Assembly: GCF_007830155.1 (NCBI RefSeq)
Contig: NZ_VLKY01000016.1
Coordinates: 34,771 to 74,770, forward strand
Reading direction: 5' to 3'
DNA: 40,000 nt
DNA from: Pseudomonas duriflava
GTDB taxonomy: Bacteria; Pseudomonadota; Gammaproteobacteria; Pseudomonadales; Pseudomonadaceae
The notes under the pieces were generated by a model. That model worked only from the letters and a program-made list of their open reading frames with translations. It did no database searches and had not been told where the DNA came from. The position numbers and the translations under genes are program-made. Of this stretch, positions 2,490 to 24,449 are shown piece after piece (position 1 is the stretch's first letter; each line of letters opens with the position of its first letter).

Positions 2490-3197
2490 ATGATCAGGAA
2501 ATCGGTAGCAGAACTCGACTTTGTCAACCGTAGATCGCCGTTGCCCACGGTTGAAGTCGACGCTGCCTCTATTGAAGCGGCCGGCTTCAGTATTCATCAC
2601 ACCGTACTGCAGATACTGACCCGGTTGGCTGAGCAGGATAAGTCACTTCGTACCACTCTTTACTTCTATGCCTCTCCAAGCGTCAACTTTCACGAACCGA
2701 GCTTTTCTGAATTCCTTCTGGTTGCAGGTCCTGAAAAGGTTCTATTGGCCCTAGGCTCTGGCTTTAAGCAACTGCCATGCGTGAAGTCTCGATTGAGCGA
2801 TTACGTATCATCAGCCTCTGCTCTGCGAGCGTTTCATGTCCAAGAAGGTCAGGTATGGGAGCCGGAAGATGCCTGCACATGGTATTCCAATAACCAGCGT
2901 CTGGCTGACCTGACCGAAGAGGCCGAGCAGGATACCCTGCCTTTAGAGGAAGACCTGGACGACCAGGAAGACTCGGAGGATACAGAGGATACAGACCCGC
3001 TTGTGACTGCTGCCGAACACAAGGCTGCGCGCTATCGGGCCGCACGCTCTGATGCGAAAGTCAGTAGCATTCGCGCCACCATCGAGGAGGTCTTTGGTTT
3101 GCCGGCAGGCTCGGTTGCTCTCTGCGGTCCGGACAGGCGAGCACTACGCGGTAACGCGCGGATCAGGACGTTGCGTAAACGCTGGGAAGAGAGTTGA
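2490..3197 (+). CDS. Hypothetical protein with a strongly acidic central tract.
   Basis: 235-aa ORF with SD AAGGAG at 2477-2482. Acidic run EEAEQDTLPLEEDLDDQEDSEDTEDTD, followed by a basic C-terminus (RGNARIRTLRKRWEES). It ends 17 nt before the DUF262 gene and is probably co-transcribed. I recognise no catalytic motif. Confidence 0.6.
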   Translation: MIRKSVAELDFVNRRSPLPTVEVDAASIEAAGFSIHHTVLQILTRLAEQDKSLRTTLYFYASPSVNFHEPSFSEFLLVAGPEKVLLALGSGFKQLPCVKSRLSDYVSSASALRAFHVQEGQVWEPEDACTWYSNNQRLADLTEEAEQDTLPLEEDLDDQEDSEDTEDTDPLVTAAEHKAARYRAARSDAKVSSIRATIEEVFGLPAGSVALCGPDRRALRGNARIRTLRKRWEES

Positions 3198-3213: not shown

Positions 3214-4710
3214 ATGATCCAGGAACATCCGGTACGGGTCAGTACATTGACCTTTGCCGATTTGCTAAAAGCAGGTCAGCCACTGGCACTGGACAGCTAC
3301 CAGCGTGGCTTTGTTTGGAGTCCTGAAAAGCTCCTGCAGTTGACAAGTGATCTTGCTGAGTTTGCAGCACAGCCAGACAAACATCTGCCCTACTATATTG
3401 GTGCAGTATTGCTGCATCATGATGCATGCCAGTCCAGAAGGTTTATCATTGATGGCCAGCAGCGCATTACTGCGCTGTCGTTGCTGTATCACCGTGCTAC
3501 CGGCAGGCTGCCCACAGGCCAGGCACTCAGCTATTCGGGACAGTCCGCGCGGCAAATCCGCAGAGGAATGCAGGCGTTGCAGCAGCAAGCGGCGATTGCA
3601 CGTGAGGTCATTGAACAACTGCGTCTGACTGTAATCGAAGTGGATAACAGCGACCTCGCATTTACCTTTTTCGATACGCAGAACAACCGTGGCGTACCCC
3701 TCCAGGCAACAGACCTGCTCAAGGCCTATCACCTGCGGGCAATCGATCATGCGAATGGCGTAGGCGAACTCAGAGCCACCCTGCAAAAAAACTGCGCCGA
3801 ACGCTGGGAGGCGATGCAGCGGTTGCCCGCAACACTGTCGCCAGGCCAGGATTTTGCTCCCTGCCTGTTCACTCGCTTTCTCTGGCGTGCTCGCCGCTGG
3901 CGCGGTACGCAAACACCAACAGACACACACGAGGCGCTGCTGTCCGAGTTCCAGATCGATACCTGGCACCACGGCGCAGATAGCCGTAGCAGCGTTGACA
4001 GTGTACCGCTCTATGCCAATCGGGTTAATAGACTGGCGACGGCGCTGACTCTGACACGTGACGGAGAGTATGTCTTGCAGGGTAACCAGGTGCGGGTCAG
4101 CCATGATCCGGCAAACCTTCCCATGGCGCTGCGCCAGCCCATTCATGAAGGCGTAGGTTTCTTTCTCTATGCTGACAAGTATGCCGCTTTGCTGCAGAGA
4201 CTGATGAATACTCCCAGGCCCTGCGCCCAGGTGACTGCATTCCGTGCAATTTATCATGAATTGCTGCGCAACAATCAGGAGTATTTGCGTGAGATTTTTA
4301 TACTCTGCACCCTGGTCTATATGGATCAGTTTGACGTCGAGCAGTTGCCTGAATTTGCCCTGCGCTTGGAGTTCCTGCTGGGTGCGATTCGTCTAAAGCA
4401 GCAACTGGTCAGGCAGGAAACGGCGGCCAATTTCTTCAGACACGCCGAACTCAATCTGCTGGATGTGATTGTGCAGAGCTACCACCCGAAACAAGTGCTG
4501 GACTTTCTGAAACGGCGTCAACAGGCCCTGCTACCGCTCTATGCCGAGGAGTCCATTAATGTAGGAAAAGGTGTGCAAGGCCGGTATAAACGAGCTGTTC
4601 TAACGTTCTATCGTGAGCAGGCAGGTTCTGCATGTTCAAGCCTTTCTGCAAAATCGCAATGGCTCGAGGCGTATCTGAAAACTTCTCTGGAAGGTCACGA
4701 TGGGCATTGA
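3214..4710 (+). CDS. DUF262 (ParB/Srx-like NTPase, GmrS-like) protein without a nuclease domain.
   Basis: DUF262 signatures: YQRGFVWSPEKLLQLTSDL, IIDGQQRITALSLL, FFDTQNNRGVPLQATDLLKAYHL. No C-terminal His-Me/DUF1524 motif. The 3' end overlaps the next gene by 11 nt. Confidence 0.85.
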   Translation: MIQEHPVRVSTLTFADLLKAGQPLALDSYQRGFVWSPEKLLQLTSDLAEFAAQPDKHLPYYIGAVLLHHDACQSRRFIIDGQQRITALSLLYHRATGRLPTGQALSYSGQSARQIRRGMQALQQQAAIAREVIEQLRLTVIEVDNSDLAFTFFDTQNNRGVPLQATDLLKAYHLRAIDHANGVGELRATLQKNCAERWEAMQRLPATLSPGQDFAPCLFTRFLWRARRWRGTQTPTDTHEALLSEFQIDTWHHGADSRSSVDSVPLYANRVNRLATALTLTRDGEYVLQGNQVRVSHDPANLPMALRQPIHEGVGFFLYADKYAALLQRLMNTPRPCAQVTAFRAIYHELLRNNQEYLREIFILCTLVYMDQFDVEQLPEFALRLEFLLGAIRLKQQLVRQETAANFFRHAELNLLDVIVQSYHPKQVLDFLKRRQQALLPLYAEESINVGKGVQGRYKRAVLTFYREQAGSACSSLSAKSQWLEAYLKTSLEGHDGH

Positions 4711-6730
4711 GTCTAGTCTCTGCACTTTGGAACAGTTGACCCACAGAGATGATGCCGCGTGGTGTTTTAATGTGCCGATTTATCAACGCCTGTACGTGTG
4801 GGCTGATGATCAGGTCAGAACGCTCTTAACCGACATAGCAAATGCATTCGATCGCCAGGACACCAGTTTTTTCCTGGGAGGTACGCTGTTGGTGGAAAAG
4901 ACCACCCATGAAGACCGAGGCGAGGGCGTCCGCCGCTTCGATCTGATTGACGGACAGCAGCGGTTCACCACTCTGTGGATGCTCAGTACGGTGCCGGTAT
5001 GGCATGAGGTGATGGGCGACTTCAGTAGGGTGCTGCTCAAGGACAGACGGATTCCGCGTCTCCATTTCTCGATCCGCGATGAGGTAAATGGCTTTCTTGC
5101 CAGCATGATGCCGGGTACCAGAGTAACGCCTTCTGAAGCAGTCGATACCCGTAGCATGAGAAAGGCCCAGCAACTGATGGCTTCCTTCGCGCAGACCTAC
5201 AAGCGTGCCGATGGCAAACCGGTAGATGATGAATATCTGAGGGGGCTCGCTGGGTATGTGTACCGCAATGTCTCGCTGGTGCTCACCCAGGTGCCTGAAG
5301 GCATGGACCTAAACAAGCTGTTCGAGGTCATCAACAACCGCGGGGTTCAACTCCAGCATCACGAGATCCTTAAGGCCAGGTTGCTGCATGATATCCCTGT
5401 ACAAGACCGCTCCCGTTGCGCGGCTCTATGGAATGCCTGTGCCGACATGAGCGGCTTTGTCGAGCGTAATCTGTCCTTAGAAGCGCAGTTGGAAGCGCAT
5501 CGGCTGGGAGATCTCTATAATAAGGGACAACTGTTGCATGCCGGTGCCGTGCACAGCTTGCTCGGGCACAATGCCAACACCGAGCAAGGTGATGATAGCG
5601 ATCGTCTGAGCCTAGAGGAAATTGTTAATGCCTCGGCAGGTAATAGCGGTATGGGGAAGACTGTTAACACCAGCGATAGCAGCGAAGCGCCTTGGGCTCG
5701 CAGCATCATTGGTTTTCCACTGTTTCTGCTTCATGTTCTTCGAATCTGGCTAAAAGAGCAGGGGCAGCCAGACCTACCACGTGTGCTGGATCGACAACTG
5801 CTCGCCCTCTTCGAGGCCCATTTGCTGGTGCCAGCGGAGTCTGTGCAGCGTGCAGAGAGGGCCCGAGGCTTTATCGACCTGCTTTGGCGCATTCGCGTAC
5901 TCTGGGATGAGTATGTGATCAAATGGGTCGACCAGGGCAATGAGGAAATACATCAGGTTTGCCACACCTCGATCTCTGCTACTGATAACAGGCGCTATAT
6001 CAATCGCAGCCGGGACACCAACCTACACCAGGGATTATCGCTGCTGCAGAGCATGCTTTACCACTCGCAGGAAATCACTACCCATTACTGGTTGACTCCC
6101 TTTCTGTATTTCATCCACAAGCATGCTAATACCGTGCGCGGTAGCAGTGGTGAGGTCGAGCGTTACTTCGGCTTCTTGTGTCACTTGGATAACCAGTTGC
6201 TGGGCGAGGTGACCGATATTTCGTTAGTTGTGCGTAGTCGTGGATTCATGGACGCCCCTTGGCGGATCGCCGCAGCCCTGCAGTTTGAAACGGCGCTGGT
6301 AGAGGACGATGGCGTCAGGTTTGCGCATTACTGGTTCTACAAGTTGGACTTCGTGCTCTGGTTTGAACAACAAAGTAAGCATGAGCTTTGGGACAACTTT
6401 CGTTTTACCGCCAAGAATTCGGTCGAGCATATTTCGCCGCAGACTCCACAGGCGACCGATACCAATACGGTCTCGAAGACGTGGTTGGACCGCTTTGGCA
6501 ATCTTGCATTGGTCTCTCGGAGTATCAACTCCGAATATGGCAATTTGCCCTTCAACGAAAAGCGTCAGCGATTTATTAATAAGCGAGAGTACGAAAAGCG
6601 GCCTGACTCCCTAAAGATGGACCTGATTTATTCGCACGATAGATGGGGGGAAGCCGCGGCCACTGCTCACCAGTCAGCCATGCTAACGACGCTACGAGAC
6701 CATTATTTAAAGGTTTTTGACTTCAACTAG
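4700..6730 (+). CDS. DUF262-DUF1524 fusion protein (GmrSD / BrxU / SspE-like NTPase-HNH endonuclease).
   Basis: N-terminal YQRLYVWADDQVRTLLTDI, LIDGQQRFTTLWML and FEVINNRGVQLQHHEILKARLL (DUF262). C-terminal NSVEHISPQTP...FGNLALVSRSINSEYGNLPFNEKR (DUF1524 His-Me finger pattern EH..P....GNL.L.....N). Confidence 0.85.
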   Translation: MGIESSLCTLEQLTHRDDAAWCFNVPIYQRLYVWADDQVRTLLTDIANAFDRQDTSFFLGGTLLVEKTTHEDRGEGVRRFDLIDGQQRFTTLWMLSTVPVWHEVMGDFSRVLLKDRRIPRLHFSIRDEVNGFLASMMPGTRVTPSEAVDTRSMRKAQQLMASFAQTYKRADGKPVDDEYLRGLAGYVYRNVSLVLTQVPEGMDLNKLFEVINNRGVQLQHHEILKARLLHDIPVQDRSRCAALWNACADMSGFVERNLSLEAQLEAHRLGDLYNKGQLLHAGAVHSLLGHNANTEQGDDSDRLSLEEIVNASAGNSGMGKTVNTSDSSEAPWARSIIGFPLFLLHVLRIWLKEQGQPDLPRVLDRQLLALFEAHLLVPAESVQRAERARGFIDLLWRIRVLWDEYVIKWVDQGNEEIHQVCHTSISATDNRRYINRSRDTNLHQGLSLLQSMLYHSQEITTHYWLTPFLYFIHKHANTVRGSSGEVERYFGFLCHLDNQLLGEVTDISLVVRSRGFMDAPWRIAAALQFETALVEDDGVRFAHYWFYKLDFVLWFEQQSKHELWDNFRFTAKNSVEHISPQTPQATDTNTVSKTWLDRFGNLALVSRSINSEYGNLPFNEKRQRFINKREYEKRPDSLKMDLIYSHDRWGEAAATAHQSAMLTTLRDHYLKVFDFN

Positions 6731-16300: not shown

Positions 16301-16428
16301 CGCGTTTGGAGAATGAGAATCGTCAATCTGGTCTGGACGTCTTGGGGCAGTCACAGGAGAGGGTCACCGGATTGTTGAAGGGGCTGACAGGCACTTTGAA
16401 GGATTTGTTGGAGGCGTGCAGTGAGTAG
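13348..16428 (+). CDS. dpdH: Large P-loop ATPase; DpdH by position.
   Basis: Walker A PLVGRSGVGKSHL and a plausible Walker B RTLVVLVEDMAAI. 1026 aa. Overlaps both neighbours. Confidence 0.6.
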   Translation: MSLINYWPSSEHISQCIRTEAEELAEHVLLAVHEPMQLLRVGNGAEQQCTEADLLTHFLEVERPIPLVGRSGVGKSHLIRWLEAQLKLQSLSANWHIVRIPKNASLRQVLEILLDGLEGDEFESARLRIRSVGEMLRTGEVADLLLTFMSQQLQRLNTRIAEQISYYRENPQASQKLSVEEKQRWRDVNAHTTPGCGLSELITDPNFKRSLLDPKHCIYQFASRLTQGATDQELSRNDYQIRAEDLDFSFNLDDLSQSARQYVSRAQLNTNRQAQESAAGVLNEVLGESTRTAFRHLFSFNGGSFLDLFKDIRRTLKHQDRTLVVLVEDMAAISAIEDVLIDSLLEEAVRDEKQELCTLRSAIAVTDGYQGYLRRQDTIKTRAQYEWLIRDHGQSREQTLERIVDFCGRYLNAARHGSAKLKASWLERSTDVSWPLIWEDSEGPPEELQAFGHSPSGVPLFPFNRNAINALADHYCSNDEELNFNPRQVLNQVVLRVLRDHRQACQEQRFPPADFANIKAGAGLIDLYRLDEPARCESLAAIWGYGCRSIAELQQNLDWRVANVFGLNALASLLEEVQPVGFVRPPTRTGTGPKKTKPAVEPGVLKSEPDPDQHRLEEIVSEWFQRTKKLEQDESRDLRNALNKMYQQYAHPDWFGLGARPELLRGTIANINIPFSLTGNKATNLVWFCQEADFEAPQKAVALKGVALALLRYESVNRRSAGIGWQYPGGFDDYLRYQNFAARWVPQVLQTLSLMERSKLHEVMKEQLSLVPILGLWRTASNDRQRLNELLTPAQKILESLPKPASPILLELRKSALDEWEGKRDAWLKLVAANDHGMDGELALRSFKEASKTDFKQKLPRYDKEITQALQSSFDVLSVLDGYSRHEQFCLLLDEMSEIVRGVSEGGLHYPAQFSDVPNAKRMREALNSLKASEVWAAVKVFLSSWNESDLPKKLQLINQVDGQKLEEAVQTLGAWDKFYSYVLPRLENENRQSGLDVLGQSQERVTGLLKGLTGTLKDLLEACSE

Positions 16429-17179
16429 TCTTGAGCAAAGAGTTTATGCTTTGCGCGAGCAGTTTGAACTAAATCGCTCGGCCGGTGAACTGCGAACCGC
16501 CATTGATGATTGCCAGGAAATTTACGAGAGATTTGTGTCGCTTTCCGAAAGGCTTGATTTGCTGCAGCGCCAATCATCGAGCATTGGGGCTTTACCGGTG
16601 GATGCTCCAGAATTGCTGGATTTGAAATCAGAGTTTAAAGGGCAGATATCTACGGCTCTGGCAAGCTTGGGAGTTTTTTTTGAGGTTTGGCGAAAGAATA
16701 AACAAGTCTCTCGTCAGGACGATTCTCTTGAGAATTCGCGAGTTGCACTTGAAAGTCTGGTTGTTCGATTGGAGAGCAAAATCGAATCCTGCTGGAAAAA
16801 GTGGACCGAACAACTGTACAGCCAGTGCATGGTCGAGAAGGTGATACTGGATAGTCAGCGCGAGATACCGGGTTCCGAACGCGTATACAGCGACTATATC
16901 GAGTTGCAGGGAAGGTTTAAAGATCTAGCAAAGCAAGTACCTGAGACCGTATGGCCTCTTCGCGATTTGATGGACCTTAAAAATCGTATGGAGCAGGTTA
17001 GAGGGGAAATGCAACTCGATCTTCCTGAGAACGTTAAGCGTTTCTTCAAGTTATTAAACCAGCGCGGAAGGTCTACGGGTGTTCCATTGTCGGAGATGGA
17101 CAAGGACACCTTCTGCTGGCTGCTTGAGCACGCCTTGCTAGGTCAGTTCTCCGTCGAACGCAGTAGGAAGCTATTTTGA
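16421..17179 (+). CDS. dpdI: Hypothetical, probably helical/coiled-coil protein; DpdI by position.
   Basis: 252-aa ORF with a GTG start overlapping the dpdH stop by 8 nt. Its stop overlaps the dpdJ start (TGATG). The sequence is rich in E/L/R/Q heptad-like runs, and I recognise no enzymatic motif. Confidence 0.5.
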   Translation: MSSLEQRVYALREQFELNRSAGELRTAIDDCQEIYERFVSLSERLDLLQRQSSSIGALPVDAPELLDLKSEFKGQISTALASLGVFFEVWRKNKQVSRQDDSLENSRVALESLVVRLESKIESCWKKWTEQLYSQCMVEKVILDSQREIPGSERVYSDYIELQGRFKDLAKQVPETVWPLRDLMDLKNRMEQVRGEMQLDLPENVKRFFKLLNQRGRSTGVPLSEMDKDTFCWLLEHALLGQFSVERSRKLF

Positions 17180-21621: not shown

Positions 21622-22149
21622 ATGAATGAGCAGCGGCAGATTTTTCTGCATGGACCTCTGGGGCGTAGGCAGTTTCGTGAAGTACTAAGTACTATGCTGG
21701 CGTCTTTGTTGATCAATCCAGACGAGATCTGGCTTGTATCACCTTGGTTGAGCGATTTTCCTTTATTGGATAATCGCTCAGGGCAATGGAATTCATTGGA
21801 ACCCAAGTGGGGTAGTCGAACCGTTTCGTTCAGCGAGTTATTGGGTCGGGCGGTCACGGCGGGGTGTACCTTGCGAATCGCAACCCGCGATGTAGACTCC
21901 AGTCGATATTTTGTCCGTGGCCTTGAGAATCGTCTCGGCGACAATCCGGACTTTCACTACCTAATCAGTGACACCCTGCATTCGAAGGGCTTTTTGACCC
22001 GATCGGGGTTTCTTAAGGGTTCCTTGAACTACACCTTCAGTGGTACGCAACGAAACGATGAGCATGTGACTCTGACACAAGACGCACAGGTGATATCCGA
22101 TGCGTTTCTTGAATTCAAAAATCATTATCGTTTCGAGGCCGATATATGA
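21622..22149 (+). CDS. dpdK: Single-HKD phospholipase D-family nuclease (Nuc-like), DpdK-like.
   Basis: 175 aa with one HKD-type motif, LHSKGFLTRSGFLKGSLNYTFSG (H.K....(x)..GS.N). It has the size of dimeric Nuc-type nucleases. Its stop overlaps the next start (ATGA). Confidence 0.75.
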   Translation: MNEQRQIFLHGPLGRRQFREVLSTMLASLLINPDEIWLVSPWLSDFPLLDNRSGQWNSLEPKWGSRTVSFSELLGRAVTAGCTLRIATRDVDSSRYFVRGLENRLGDNPDFHYLISDTLHSKGFLTRSGFLKGSLNYTFSGTQRNDEHVTLTQDAQVISDAFLEFKNHYRFEADI

Positions 22150-24329
22150 GTATCCCACCAGATTGGCTTCGGAATTTTTTCGCTGAAGACAATCAAATCG
22201 ATCTTGATCGACTGCTTTCGCTGACTAACCCGTACGATCCAAAGTTTCAAGATCTACTCAAGCCACTCGTGTCTTCAGCTATCGAGGGAAAATGGCCGTT
22301 GCTGCTCCCGGTTAGTCGTGGCGGCGAACTTTACTTCTATGGTGCTGAACGCGACAGGCGATCTTTGGAGGAGTTGCGACAGATACTGCAAGCGGTGCTG
22401 GGAGCAGCGGATACGTATCCAGAGTTTCCATTGATTAAGGTAGCCCGGGGAAAAATCGAACAGATTCTTTTACAGCAGGCACCTGCAGGGCTTCTCAAAG
22501 TTGATTTGTTACGCCAGTCGCAGAGCGACTTCGCTTTACGTAAACGTGTGTTTCAAGCGTTGGCATCGGTGCTGGATCTCTACCAGCAACGGCCGCCAGC
22601 AACCGCTGTGGTGAAGCGGCCAGTTGGGCGGGTCCTGCGGGATTTCTTCGCCGCTTGTCAGTCCTGGGATGGTTCGAAAGCATCGCACTTTTTTGGCGAA
22701 CTCAAAACGACAGGCAATTTCAGTCAGCGAAACTTGATCTCTCTGGAGTTGCAGGCCTGGGAGGCTGAGCGTCGTTGGTCGGACATTATAGGACATCCCC
22801 GACTAGTGGATATGCTGGGCGCAAGAATGCCCGCCCAACTGGTTCGGGTTCTATTGCGCGCCGTAGGTAATTTAGGCGGTGAACGTTTGCTGGAGCCAGG
22901 GGCGTTTGGCGAGGTGTCCCTGGAGCATATACGTCTTCTATGTCAGCCGATTAGCCCTCTTTTTGCCAATCGGCCTCCCCTAGAGACCCGCGAATGCTTT
23001 GCATCCGACTGGAAACTCTGGGCGATAGGCGCCGGGGCATTAGGCTTCTCCGATGGCCTTGATGGTCTTCCTGTCTTCATCGATCCGGCCTGGATTTGCG
23101 GATTGCACGACTGGGCAAACCTGCCGGCCAAGACCCCGGTAGCGCCAACCATAGCACCAATCCCTTCGCTGCAAAAAGTCGGATCTCCCCAGACCTTCAA
23201 CGATCTGCGACTGGTGCTCGAAGGCTCGCTATCTGCCTCCATGGAAGAGTTACGCGAGATCTGGGTCGCAGTGCAGGACGCACCCGAAGAGTTAAAAAAT
23301 GAACTCTACGTTTATCCACGCCTGCAGTCGGTGTGGCAAGGCATATGCCAGTTCTTCGATGGTAGTAGAGAACTCGGTTGGAAGGGATGGCTAGAACGCC
23401 TGAAGGAGGATTCTACTGACCCAGATGCCCTGATTCACGAGTTGCAGGAGGAGAGCCAGAGCTGGTCAATCGAGTCCTTCTCGGAGGCTCAGTTGATTGA
23501 GTGTCTGCATGGCGATGCCAGTACTTCCCTATTGTTGCGAGACAGCTTGCCGCTGCTGCTTGACTGGCTGGATCGTCGTCAAATCCTCTGCTCCGGGCAC
23601 TTCTGGCTGGAATGGCTGGAGTTGCTGGCTCTCGATGATTTGGTTAATCCGTCGGACGTACAGTTGGCAGGGCAGATTGTGCAGCGCTTCTTGTCCCGTC
23701 CTAGCCAAATCGGTGACCGTGCGCGCCTAGGGGAGTCCCTGGAGTTGTTATGGGAGAAGGGCGGTTCGGTCAGTGCTTATTCGGAAATGCTCGAGATTGT
23801 CGAGTTGCTTTTGGACGAGACTCAACCGGGGCAGCAACAGTTGCAAAAGCTCTGGTTGGTACTTCAAGGATTCGCCATGAGTCGCTGGACCCGTCTCGAG
23901 TTAGTGCAGCGTTATCTCACCAAAAGTCTCGCCAGAGAGATATTTGGTGAGAGCAATGAAGCGAGTTATCCGCCACTAACTGCTGAAGGAGGCGATGCTG
24001 ATCTTGACGTCCAAACAAGAAGGCTATCGGGTAGGCTGCTTGCTATCTACAGCCTTACCGAAGGGGCCGCGCGGCGAGCTAAAATAGTACTGGAAGGCAT
24101 GTTTGAGGGGCTGCGAGTGGAACTCAATCATGATCACACTGCGACCCCGGCTCTGCAGAATTTAGCCAAAAAAGCTAATTACTTCTTGTTTGTTTCCTGT
24201 AGCGCGAAGCATCAAGCCTTCTATCCCGTGAGTCGGATAAGACAGGATTTGATCTATCCCTTAGGAAAAGGCGCATCGAGCATAATCGAAGCATTTTGCA
24301 AAAGCTGCGTAAATACTACCTCGGAATAA
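22146..24329 (+). CDS. Hypothetical 727-aa protein translationally coupled to dpdK. It may be the DpdD equivalent or an additional component.
   Basis: Long uninterrupted ORF with the same composition as the operon and an ATGA overlap with dpdK. No catalytic motif recognised. The C-terminal ~90 aa (LLAIYSLTEGAARRAKIVLEG...NYFLFVSCSAKHQAFYPV) look like a small Rossmann-like alpha/beta domain. Confidence 0.6.
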   Translation: MSIPPDWLRNFFAEDNQIDLDRLLSLTNPYDPKFQDLLKPLVSSAIEGKWPLLLPVSRGGELYFYGAERDRRSLEELRQILQAVLGAADTYPEFPLIKVARGKIEQILLQQAPAGLLKVDLLRQSQSDFALRKRVFQALASVLDLYQQRPPATAVVKRPVGRVLRDFFAACQSWDGSKASHFFGELKTTGNFSQRNLISLELQAWEAERRWSDIIGHPRLVDMLGARMPAQLVRVLLRAVGNLGGERLLEPGAFGEVSLEHIRLLCQPISPLFANRPPLETRECFASDWKLWAIGAGALGFSDGLDGLPVFIDPAWICGLHDWANLPAKTPVAPTIAPIPSLQKVGSPQTFNDLRLVLEGSLSASMEELREIWVAVQDAPEELKNELYVYPRLQSVWQGICQFFDGSRELGWKGWLERLKEDSTDPDALIHELQEESQSWSIESFSEAQLIECLHGDASTSLLLRDSLPLLLDWLDRRQILCSGHFWLEWLELLALDDLVNPSDVQLAGQIVQRFLSRPSQIGDRARLGESLELLWEKGGSVSAYSEMLEIVELLLDETQPGQQQLQKLWLVLQGFAMSRWTRLELVQRYLTKSLAREIFGESNEASYPPLTAEGGDADLDVQTRRLSGRLLAIYSLTEGAARRAKIVLEGMFEGLRVELNHDHTATPALQNLAKKANYFLFVSCSAKHQAFYPVSRIRQDLIYPLGKGASSIIEAFCKSCVNTTSE

Positions 24330-24449
24330 AGAGGTGACCTCAAAGGTGTCGAGTTCTCGGTATCATCCTGATGATGAGTGCAAAGTTGTTTCTGCTCAAT
24401 GTGTACGATAGTTTACATAGTAATCAATCCGTCAAGCATTTAACAAAGC

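Follow-up and report, generated by a model that had tools for sequence, protein, structure and literature searches.

The 727-aa protein encoded at 22146-24329 of the window (the whole stretch of Pseudomonas duriflava DNA that was analysed, 40,000 nucleotides) is, with near certainty, DpdD, whose gene closes the Dpd restriction operon (dpdE-F-G-H-I-J-K-D). In Dpd systems, 7-deazaguanines (preQ0/ADG) take the place of some guanines of the cell's DNA, and DNA that lacks this modification is restricted. Tentatively, and at somewhat less than even chances, we propose that DpdD serves the PLD nuclease DpdK as a scaffold or a regulatory partner; the identity and this role, stated together as one claim, are considered slightly better than an even bet.

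Identity of the protein

The gene and its immediate surroundings comprise the following features:

21622-22149, plus strand: dpdK, gene of a single-HKD phospholipase-D-like nuclease (NF041068, weak PLDc_2 match)
22135-22138, plus strand: GAGG Shine-Dalgarno-like motif, 7 nt before the dpdD ATG and within the 3' end of dpdK (direct reading)
22146-24329, plus strand: dpdD, 727 aa, ATG start (ORF list, NF041061 and PADLOC DpdD)
24330-24449, no strand: convergent spacer of 120 bp between dpdD and queD, the latter on the minus strand

The NCBIfam equivalog model NF041061 matches the protein with 578.4 bits, the curated cut-off being 300, and aligns residues 8-716 with positions 1-704 of its 704. 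Additionally, the PADLOC DpdD model PDLC02826 reaches 631.4 bits (residues 4-719 against 4-725 of 729), and 15 other PADLOC DpdD sub-models also match. A search of the complete genome with NF041061 led to the same outcome as the search of the window protein and to a single copy of dpdD. Pfam PF28109 ("DpdD") is precomputed on all the relatives, and the orthologues in E. coli, A. vitis and Nostoc carry the label dpdD in RefSeq/GenBank. The sequence-only reading had called the protein uncharacterised, which does not hold given that curated DpdD models exist and that the RefSeq label is dpdD; its guess that this might be the DpdD counterpart, by contrast, is borne out by the full-length matches. 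The upstream PLD nuclease that it had taken for DpdK is indeed recognised as such by NF041068 (186.3 bits, cut-off 100).

The reading of the gene itself also stands, as both the ORF and the overlap with dpdK are real: the TGA stop of dpdK and the ATG of dpdD (22146-22148) overlap as ATGA. A consensus scan found no terminator in the 120-bp spacer between dpdD and queD. The composition shared with the operon was confirmed as well, since G+C over 22-24 kb is 0.52-0.55, like that of dpdE-K (0.48-0.58) and unlike that of the modification genes, which lie at 26-33 kb and have 0.43-0.47.

The Dpd island and the dpdK-dpdD pair

The genes in the window follow the order dpdE, F, G, H, I, J, K and D, then queD, queE, queC, dpdB, dpdA, dpdB and dpdC. 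For DpdE, F, G, H, J, K, A and B the cut-offs are exceeded, DpdI reaches 105 bits, below its cut-off of 150, and DpdC was identified through PADLOC. Thus, dpdD lies inside a dpd cluster that holds dpdA/dpdB and the restriction genes. As in the Dpd system of the Salmonella Montevideo type, it occupies the position after dpdK and has the same neighbours (dpdE-K, then dpdB/dpdA); the differences from known Dpd systems are minor, namely three dpdB copies, queC, queD and queE genes belonging to the island, and Asn for Asp at position 678 of DpdD. The E. coli and Kluyvera orthologues share about 35% identity with the protein, have equal length and show the same three-part layout (see below). Because dpdD is in its usual place directly after dpdK, the locus is ordinary, a catalogued gene in a catalogued place.

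In fact, dpdK was found directly upstream of dpdD, on the same strand, in all 28 loci having upstream sequence (the related-locus search used a 31-sequence alignment), down to 24% protein identity, and the same order is observed in RefSeq-annotated E. coli as well as on plasmids of Agrobacterium and Nostoc. In nearly all loci the dpdD start lies at -4, -8, -1 or +1 nt relative to the dpdK stop, the genes thereby overlapping or abutting. The pair also persists where the island is disturbed. For instance, six genes separate dpdJ from dpdK in Nostoc, yet dpdK and dpdD are adjacent, and neither dpdA nor dpdB was found within 14 kb downstream of the pair; in A. vitis, dpdK-dpdD is intact although it is parted from the modification genes by approximately 10 kb holding IS elements and endonuclease genes. 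The dpdK-dpdD pair is the most persistent linkage of the island. The earlier suggestion of a DpdD relocated to the 3' end was rejected because dpdK followed by dpdD is the standard order at every locus examined, including the 28 loci and those of E. coli, A. vitis and Nostoc.

Regarding co-occurrence, whose absence had been named as grounds for refutation, the 401 genomes sampled include 4 with DpdD, and these are exactly the ones with DpdK and with DpdA. Homologues recovered with the family profile were limited to a set of 22 close relatives. As for the claim that dpdD is "almost certainly co-expressed" with the restriction genes, co-expression is plausible, since the dpdK/dpdD overlap is kept family-wide.

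Predicted architecture

The AlphaFold model of DpdD is confident (pLDDT 92) and shows a predicted architecture of three parts, namely an N-terminal alpha+beta domain, a helical body formed by a TPR-like segment and an acidic block, and a basic flavodoxin-like C-terminal module (the C-module):

22146-22595, plus strand: N-terminal alpha+beta domain, residues 1-150 (AF2 models)
22617-23135, plus strand: TPR-like helical segment, residues 158-330 (VIA, Foldseek)
23178-23975, plus strand: strongly acidic helical block, residues 345-610, all-helical in the AlphaFold model
23997-24323, plus strand: basic flavodoxin-like alpha/beta C-module, residues 618-726 (Pfam PF28109 "DpdD", DUF2325-like)
24210-24212, plus strand: codon of His689, which alone is invariant across the DpdD family (127/127)

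When modelled alone with AF2, the N-terminal domain gives a pLDDT of 94 and a pTM of 0.88. No clear structural relative was found for it by Foldseek (best E=0.06), by VIA (best Z=5.7) or in the Atlas (no usable match); the top VIA match, at that Z of 5.7, is a TYW3-like protein, and ACT-like and pterin-dehydratase-like folds follow at about Z 5. Residues 158-330 superpose on TPR arrays such as those of SRP72 (Z 9.4), Tah1 (Z 8.9) and LapB (Z 8.8) in VIA, values that unrelated helical repeats commonly reach, about 13 being advised for such repeats. With the whole model, Foldseek returned only TPR, HAT and PPR repeats at a TM of about 0.1. Pfam scans found neither a TPR sequence motif nor a TPR family match in DpdD or in ten relatives. 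The acidic helical block has a net charge of -22 (family median -18) and is acidic in all 127 members of the 127-sequence alignment.

No family of the local Pfam copy is found in DpdD, so no NTPase, nuclease or methyltransferase domain was detected, in agreement with the sequence-only reading, which had recognised no such motif. A lax Pfam scan of ten relatives gave scattered sub-threshold matches only, and comparing a profile with the sequences in the PDB turned up nothing but helical noise (E of at least 0.015). The similarity of DpdD to DUF3225 mentioned in a 2016 review (PMC5699537) was not recovered in the Pfam scans of the protein and the ten relatives.

The C-terminal module and His689

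A possible small alpha/beta domain at the extreme C-terminus had already been noticed, and the AlphaFold model agrees, with strands at 631-635, 657-661 and 679-682; four strands are modelled in all, and His689 follows the third. This is the most conserved part of the DpdD family, with conserved residues at E639, D663, H689, G707-K708-G709 and S712. The module has a pI of 9.4 and is basic in 97% of family members. Short DpdD forms that do not carry it are also known, one of 434 aa (G198) and clusters of about 575 aa, and because of them it cannot always be needed in cis; no Pfam match was found in the tails of two of them (P0112 and G198). A hint from the Atlas at phage look-alikes of the module was not supported, as tblastn of phages with the C-module found nothing.

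The C-module probably belongs, as a divergent member, to DUF2325 (PF10087), a small domain of bacteria to which no function has been assigned. An hhalign comparison of the two gives a score of 29.9 over 100 columns (P=2.1e-4, probability 46%), while the reversed control reaches 12.9 and 20 shuffled controls at most 15.1. The Asp, Ala-Asp and Ser/Lys-His motifs of DUF2325 are in register with the C-module, and His689 falls on the His that DUF2325 conserves in its "SH" motif. Additionally, in DUF2325 proteins and DpdD alike the domain is C-terminal, behind an unannotated and probably helical region. The Atlas feature score for DUF2325 likeness (0.76) serves as a lead only. By contrast, the "VGG" and "HHDGG" motifs are replaced in the C-module, which also lacks the Cys residues on either side of the His; this DpdD gives no match to PF10087 (gathering threshold 33.6 bits), and two of the ten relatives match it below that threshold (P0065 with 13.4 bits and P0167 with 15.1 bits, E 0.03-0.09).

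The overall fold is shared with the three-layer alpha/beta folds of receivers, PTS EIIB and flavodoxin-like proteins. Residues 626-727 match the BaeR receiver 4b09 in VIA with Z 8.7 (rmsd 2.6, 93 aligned), the NtrC-family structure 2q5c with Z 8.9 and the EIIB structure 1e2b with Z 8.2; in general, receiver, PTS-EIIB and PBP-type folds give Z 8-9, and receivers Z 7.7-8.7 by fold alone. All these matches are tied, at 8-15% identity, and the C-module has only four strands. Moreover, receivers, which also have an acidic pair after strand 1 and Thr/Ser and Lys after strands 4 and 5, carry their phospho-acceptor Asp after strand 3, whereas the C-module carries a His there. This resemblance in fold gives no evidence of phosphotransfer.

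Possible roles of DpdD

A role as scaffold or regulatory partner of DpdK would operate as follows. Translational coupling would produce DpdD and DpdK in a fixed proportion, the helical body of DpdD would hold protein partners, and the basic DUF2325-like C-module might bind a phosphate-bearing ligand or DNA, with this binding helping to license or to restrain cleavage. The lasting dpdK-dpdD pairing described above speaks for the partnership, as does the assignment of DpdD-K to the restriction phenotype (PMC10164549). A scaffold-like character is supported by the TPR-like matches, the empty search for Pfam enzyme domains, the lack of a sequence match to any solved structure, the acidic block in 100% of members and the basic C-module in 97%, and the earlier idea of a sensor or scaffold fits the modelled architecture. 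Nevertheless, adjacency and coupling would be equally expected for any two subunits of one machine, and the invariant His, with E639, D663 and the GKGS loop, resembles an active site or a ligand site more than a part of a passive scaffold. The short forms lacking the C-module, the TPR-like Z-scores that helical repeats can reach by chance, and the 2016 review's grouping of dpdD with dpdA/B/C by distribution (PMC5699537) also count against it.

The same residues lead to a different proposal, which we consider rather unlikely, in which DpdD is an enzyme or effector subunit whose C-module uses His689, E639, D663 and the GKGS loop to catalyse a reaction such as hydrolysis or phosphotransfer, with DNA or a nucleotide as substrate, the helical body merely delivering it. 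The invariance of His689 argues for such a role, as do the conservation of E639, D663, K708 and S712 (83-93% across the family), the position of the conserved residues after strands 1, 2, 3 and 4, which according to the model topology would be the usual ligand edge of such folds, and the resemblance to phosphotransfer domains. However, neither Pfam nor the PDB profile search matches an enzyme family, the structural matches are spread evenly across unrelated flavodoxin-like folds, DUF2325 itself has no known activity, and DpdD forms without the C-module exist. Additionally, position 678, an Asp in 92% of the family, is Asn here and N, S, Q or E in this Pseudomonas clade.

It is quite improbable that DpdD serves the modification side instead, recruiting or regulating DpdA, DpdB or DpdC, for example to couple modification to restriction. 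The 2016 review counted dpdD in 90% of the genomes carrying dpdA and described it as "nearly always associated with dpdA", with a distribution that goes with dpdA/B/C and not with dpdEFJK (PMC5699537). In most loci, moreover, dpdD lies at the junction beside a convergent dpdB-dpdA pair, and its acidic block could, speculatively, bind the basic DpdA, DpdB and DpdC (pI 7.6-9.4). Against this, DpdA, DpdB and DpdC alone reconstitute modification in vitro, while DpdD-K, assigned as a group, give the restriction phenotype (PMC10164549); dpdD is co-oriented and coupled with dpdK rather than with dpdA/B, remains with dpdK where the modification genes are displaced (A. vitis) or not nearby (Nostoc), and agrees in G+C with the restriction operon.

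Finally, the idea that the ORF has nothing to do with DpdD and was added in this lineage only, for instance as a sensor gained by Pseudomonas, can practically be dismissed: although the local Pfam copy gives no match and the N-terminal domain lacks a structural relative, the idea is ruled out by the full-length matches to two curated model sets (NF041061 and PADLOC DpdD), by a family of 993 representatives at 50% identity and by the gene order in the relatives' loci, with orthologues placed alike in Enterobacteriaceae, Alpha- and Betaproteobacteria, Cyanobacteria and a Planctomycetota MAG.

To return to DpdD as partner of DpdK, a more specific version, which we regard as a long shot, is that the C-module is a ligand- or phospho-His-operated switch gating the co-translated nuclease, His689 lying after strand 3, where receivers carry their phospho-acceptor. 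The dpdK-dpdD linkage, the invariant His689, the separable basic C-module and the family-wide acidic helical block offer experimental handles. If the switch were real, it would provide the first function for DpdD and for the DUF2325 superfamily, and it would identify the checkpoint that holds Dpd restriction off modified self DNA.

Identification of the gene

Two overlapping ORFs form the junction considered here:
21622-22149, + strand: upstream ORF (dpdK, a PLD-like nuclease gene), its TGA stop shared with the dpdD ATG as ATGA
22146-24329, + strand: dpdD ORF, 727 aa, ATG start

The sequence-only reading had described this ORF and its overlap with the upstream stop, and both are confirmed in the sequence, which also carries a GAGG motif 7 nt 5′ of the ATG. 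Its view that the gene shares the composition of the operon likewise holds, as the G+C content of dpdD (0.52-0.55) equals that of the upstream helicase and nuclease genes, against 0.43-0.47 in the downstream modification genes; it had seen no NTPase, nuclease or methyltransferase motif, and our local Pfam copy finds no domain in the protein. There is a single dpdD copy in the P. duriflava genome, and a consensus scan of the 120-bp spacer between the convergent genes dpdD and queD (24330-24449) detected no intrinsic terminator.

The suggestion that the protein might be the counterpart of DpdD is borne out by two profiles: the NCBIfam equivalog NF041061 scores 578.4 bits (curated cut-off 300) and is matched from its first to its last position, and the PADLOC DpdD profile scores 631 bits. 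Additionally, PF28109, a newer Pfam family named 'DpdD' in the Atlas, is borne by all relatives in a large protein collection. Judging by these profile matches, the 727-aa protein is DpdD.

The Dpd island

A complete Dpd island makes up the rest of the window, with these components and neighbours:
+ strand: dpdE, F, G, H, I, J, K, D
minus strand: queD, queE, queC, dpdB, dpdA, dpdB, dpdC
+ strand, after dpdC: third dpdB
1077-1949: WYL-domain protein, just 5′ of dpdE
2490-3197: unknown protein of 235 aa, just 5′ of dpdE
3214-4710: GmrSD_N+DUF7834 gene, overlapping the next GmrSD-type gene
4700-6730: GmrSD_N+GmrSD_C gene, overlapping the preceding GmrSD-type gene

The two GmrSD-type genes resemble a restriction pair of type IV (modified-DNA-dependent), placed beside a DNA-modifying system. 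DpdI (16421-17179) reaches 105 bits, under the NCBIfam cut-off of 150, and is a poorly modelled family; the equivalent genes in E. coli, Agrobacterium vitis and Nostoc are labelled 'hypothetical protein' in RefSeq. The island (6880-31875) is also split by charge, as DpdD-K are all acidic (pI 5.1-6.3) whereas the modification proteins (DpdA, DpdC and all three copies of DpdB) range from neutral to basic (pI 7.6-9.4).

Pairing of dpdK and dpdD

We compared 30 loci encoding DpdD relatives at 24-94% identity, from Pseudomonas, Paraburkholderia, Enterobacteriaceae, Brevundimonas, Methylococcaceae and others, together with one Planctomycetota MAG, onto which the Dpd proteins of the window were mapped by tblastn. 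The nearest, from Phytopseudomonas argentinensis (94% protein identity), has an identical layout. In all 28 loci with upstream sequence, dpdK lies directly 5′ of dpdD on the same strand and is preceded by dpdJ, and the modification genes usually follow dpdD in convergent orientation. The distance from the dpdK stop to the dpdD start is -4, -8, -1 or +1 nt in nearly every locus; because the overlap recurs so widely, the coupling to the nuclease gene that had been noticed in this one sequence is a trait of the family.

The E. coli RefSeq island is similarly arranged (queD, dpdE, dpdF, dpdG, dpdH, a hypothetical gene, dpdJ, dpdK and dpdD, then dpdB and dpdA on the opposite strand), with an 8-nt dpdK/dpdD overlap, and its dpdD was found in 59 of 5,426 complete E. 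coli genomes. The idea that dpdD had been relocated to the 3′ end is consequently rejected, since the dpdK-dpdD order is that of the 28 informative loci and of E. coli.

No linkage in the island is as persistent as that of dpdK with dpdD. On a plasmid of Nostoc sp. C057 (L042:9995-13968), for instance, six small genes, including those for a DUF4365 protein and an HNH-motif protein, lie between dpdJ and dpdK, and dpdK and dpdD are still adjacent, with a 93-nt gap and no overlap; no dpdA or dpdB is annotated within 14 kb downstream of the pair. On an A. vitis plasmid, the two genes overlap by 4 nt and lie about 10 kb from the modification genes, across a stretch of IS and endonuclease genes. Co-occurrence with other dpd genes was also observed: in a single sample of 401 genomes drawn from the phylum, DpdD, DpdA and DpdK were each detected in the same 4 and in none of the rest.

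Architecture and conservation

An exhaustive search gave 993 DpdD representatives at 50% identity, mostly of 700-770 aa. The AlphaFold2 model, built on a 127-sequence alignment (mean pLDDT 92.1, pTM 0.82), has three parts:
residues 1-150: N-terminal alpha+beta domain (pLDDT 94 when folded alone)
residues ~158-605: all-helical region
residues 618-726: C-module, four-stranded parallel alpha/beta

No convincing structural relative was found for residues 1-150 (Foldseek best E=0.06, VIA best Z=5.7). The first helical segment fits TPR arrays at Z 8.8-9.4, values that unrelated helical repeats can also give. Residues 345-610 are strongly acidic in 127/127 members (median net charge -18, here -22).

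The C-module, which corresponds to the small alpha/beta domain glimpsed in the sequence-only reading, shows the highest conservation within the family, has a basic character in 97% of members (pI ~9.4) and contains His689, the only invariant residue of DpdD. Further conserved residues are E639, D663, G707-K708-G709 and S712; in the model, these and His689 follow strands and would lie on the ligand-binding edge of such folds. D678 is on the other edge, ahead of strand 3; this position (codon 24177-24179) is Asp in 92% of the family, Asn here, and N/S/Q/D/E within the clade. The predicted fold is clearly of the flavodoxin-like class, and its matches, which include receiver domains, PTS EIIB, halves of periplasmic binding proteins and a TIR domain at tied Z of 8-9, single out no family.

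The motif pattern of the C-module pointed to DUF2325, a low-score lead in the Atlas, and sub-threshold PF10087 (DUF2325) matches were found exactly at the C-module in 2/10 diverse relatives. When profiles were compared, using genuine DUF2325 sequences from genomes and the protein collection, hhalign aligned 100 columns at a score of 29.9 (P=2.1e-4, probability 46%), the Asp, Ala-Asp and His motifs coinciding, against 12.9 for the reversed control and at most 15.1 for 20 column-shuffled ones. A distant kinship seems likely from sequence comparison. As in DpdD, DUF2325 is C-terminal in its multi-domain proteins and preceded by an unannotated region. As DUF2325 is itself uncharacterised, the putative kinship gives DpdD no function.

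Several relatives suggest that DpdD also exists in split or shortened forms. In genome G198, the gene after dpdK (L040:3866-5170, minus strand) encodes 434 aa comprising the N-domain and the TPR-like body, and abuts a convergent dpdB, so that it lacks the C-module. P0112 (442 aa) is similar, and neither tail has Pfam matches. Three ~575-aa clusters (P0063, P0066 and P0067) end where the C-module would begin, around residue 576, and P0061, P0119 and P0136 (110-151 aa) are the C-module alone. PADLOC has DpdD models of like sizes (538 and 148 positions).

Possible role of DpdD

A 2016 review reported dpdD in 90% of dpdA genomes, with weak DUF3225 similarity only, 'making any functional prediction difficult' (PMC5699537). 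The 2023 reconstitution attributed modification to DpdA/B/C and restriction to DpdD-K as a set, stating 'specific roles for each protein unknown' (PMC10164549). A preprint on YprA helicases analysed DpdJ and left DpdD unmentioned. According to GATOR-GC, similarity recovers dpdD and dpdI less often than any other dpd genes (PMC12235509), which fits the low mean column identity of the DpdD family (24%).

No enzymatic domain is recognisable in DpdD, and the best-supported reading is that it would be a scaffold or regulatory subunit whose synthesis keeps pace with that of the DpdK nuclease. Pairing, architecture and conservation were observed here; on the functional side, we infer that partners would dock on the helical body and that the basic, His-bearing C-module would bind DNA or a phosphate-bearing ligand. 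The invariant His also favours a main rival, in which the C-module would be catalytic. A role on the modification side, the other rival, is made less likely by the in vitro reconstitution and by the K-D linkage. The gene dpdD was already known and occupies here the site that is standard for it; the residual value of the analysis of this putative scaffold lies in a domain map and a set of testable residues.
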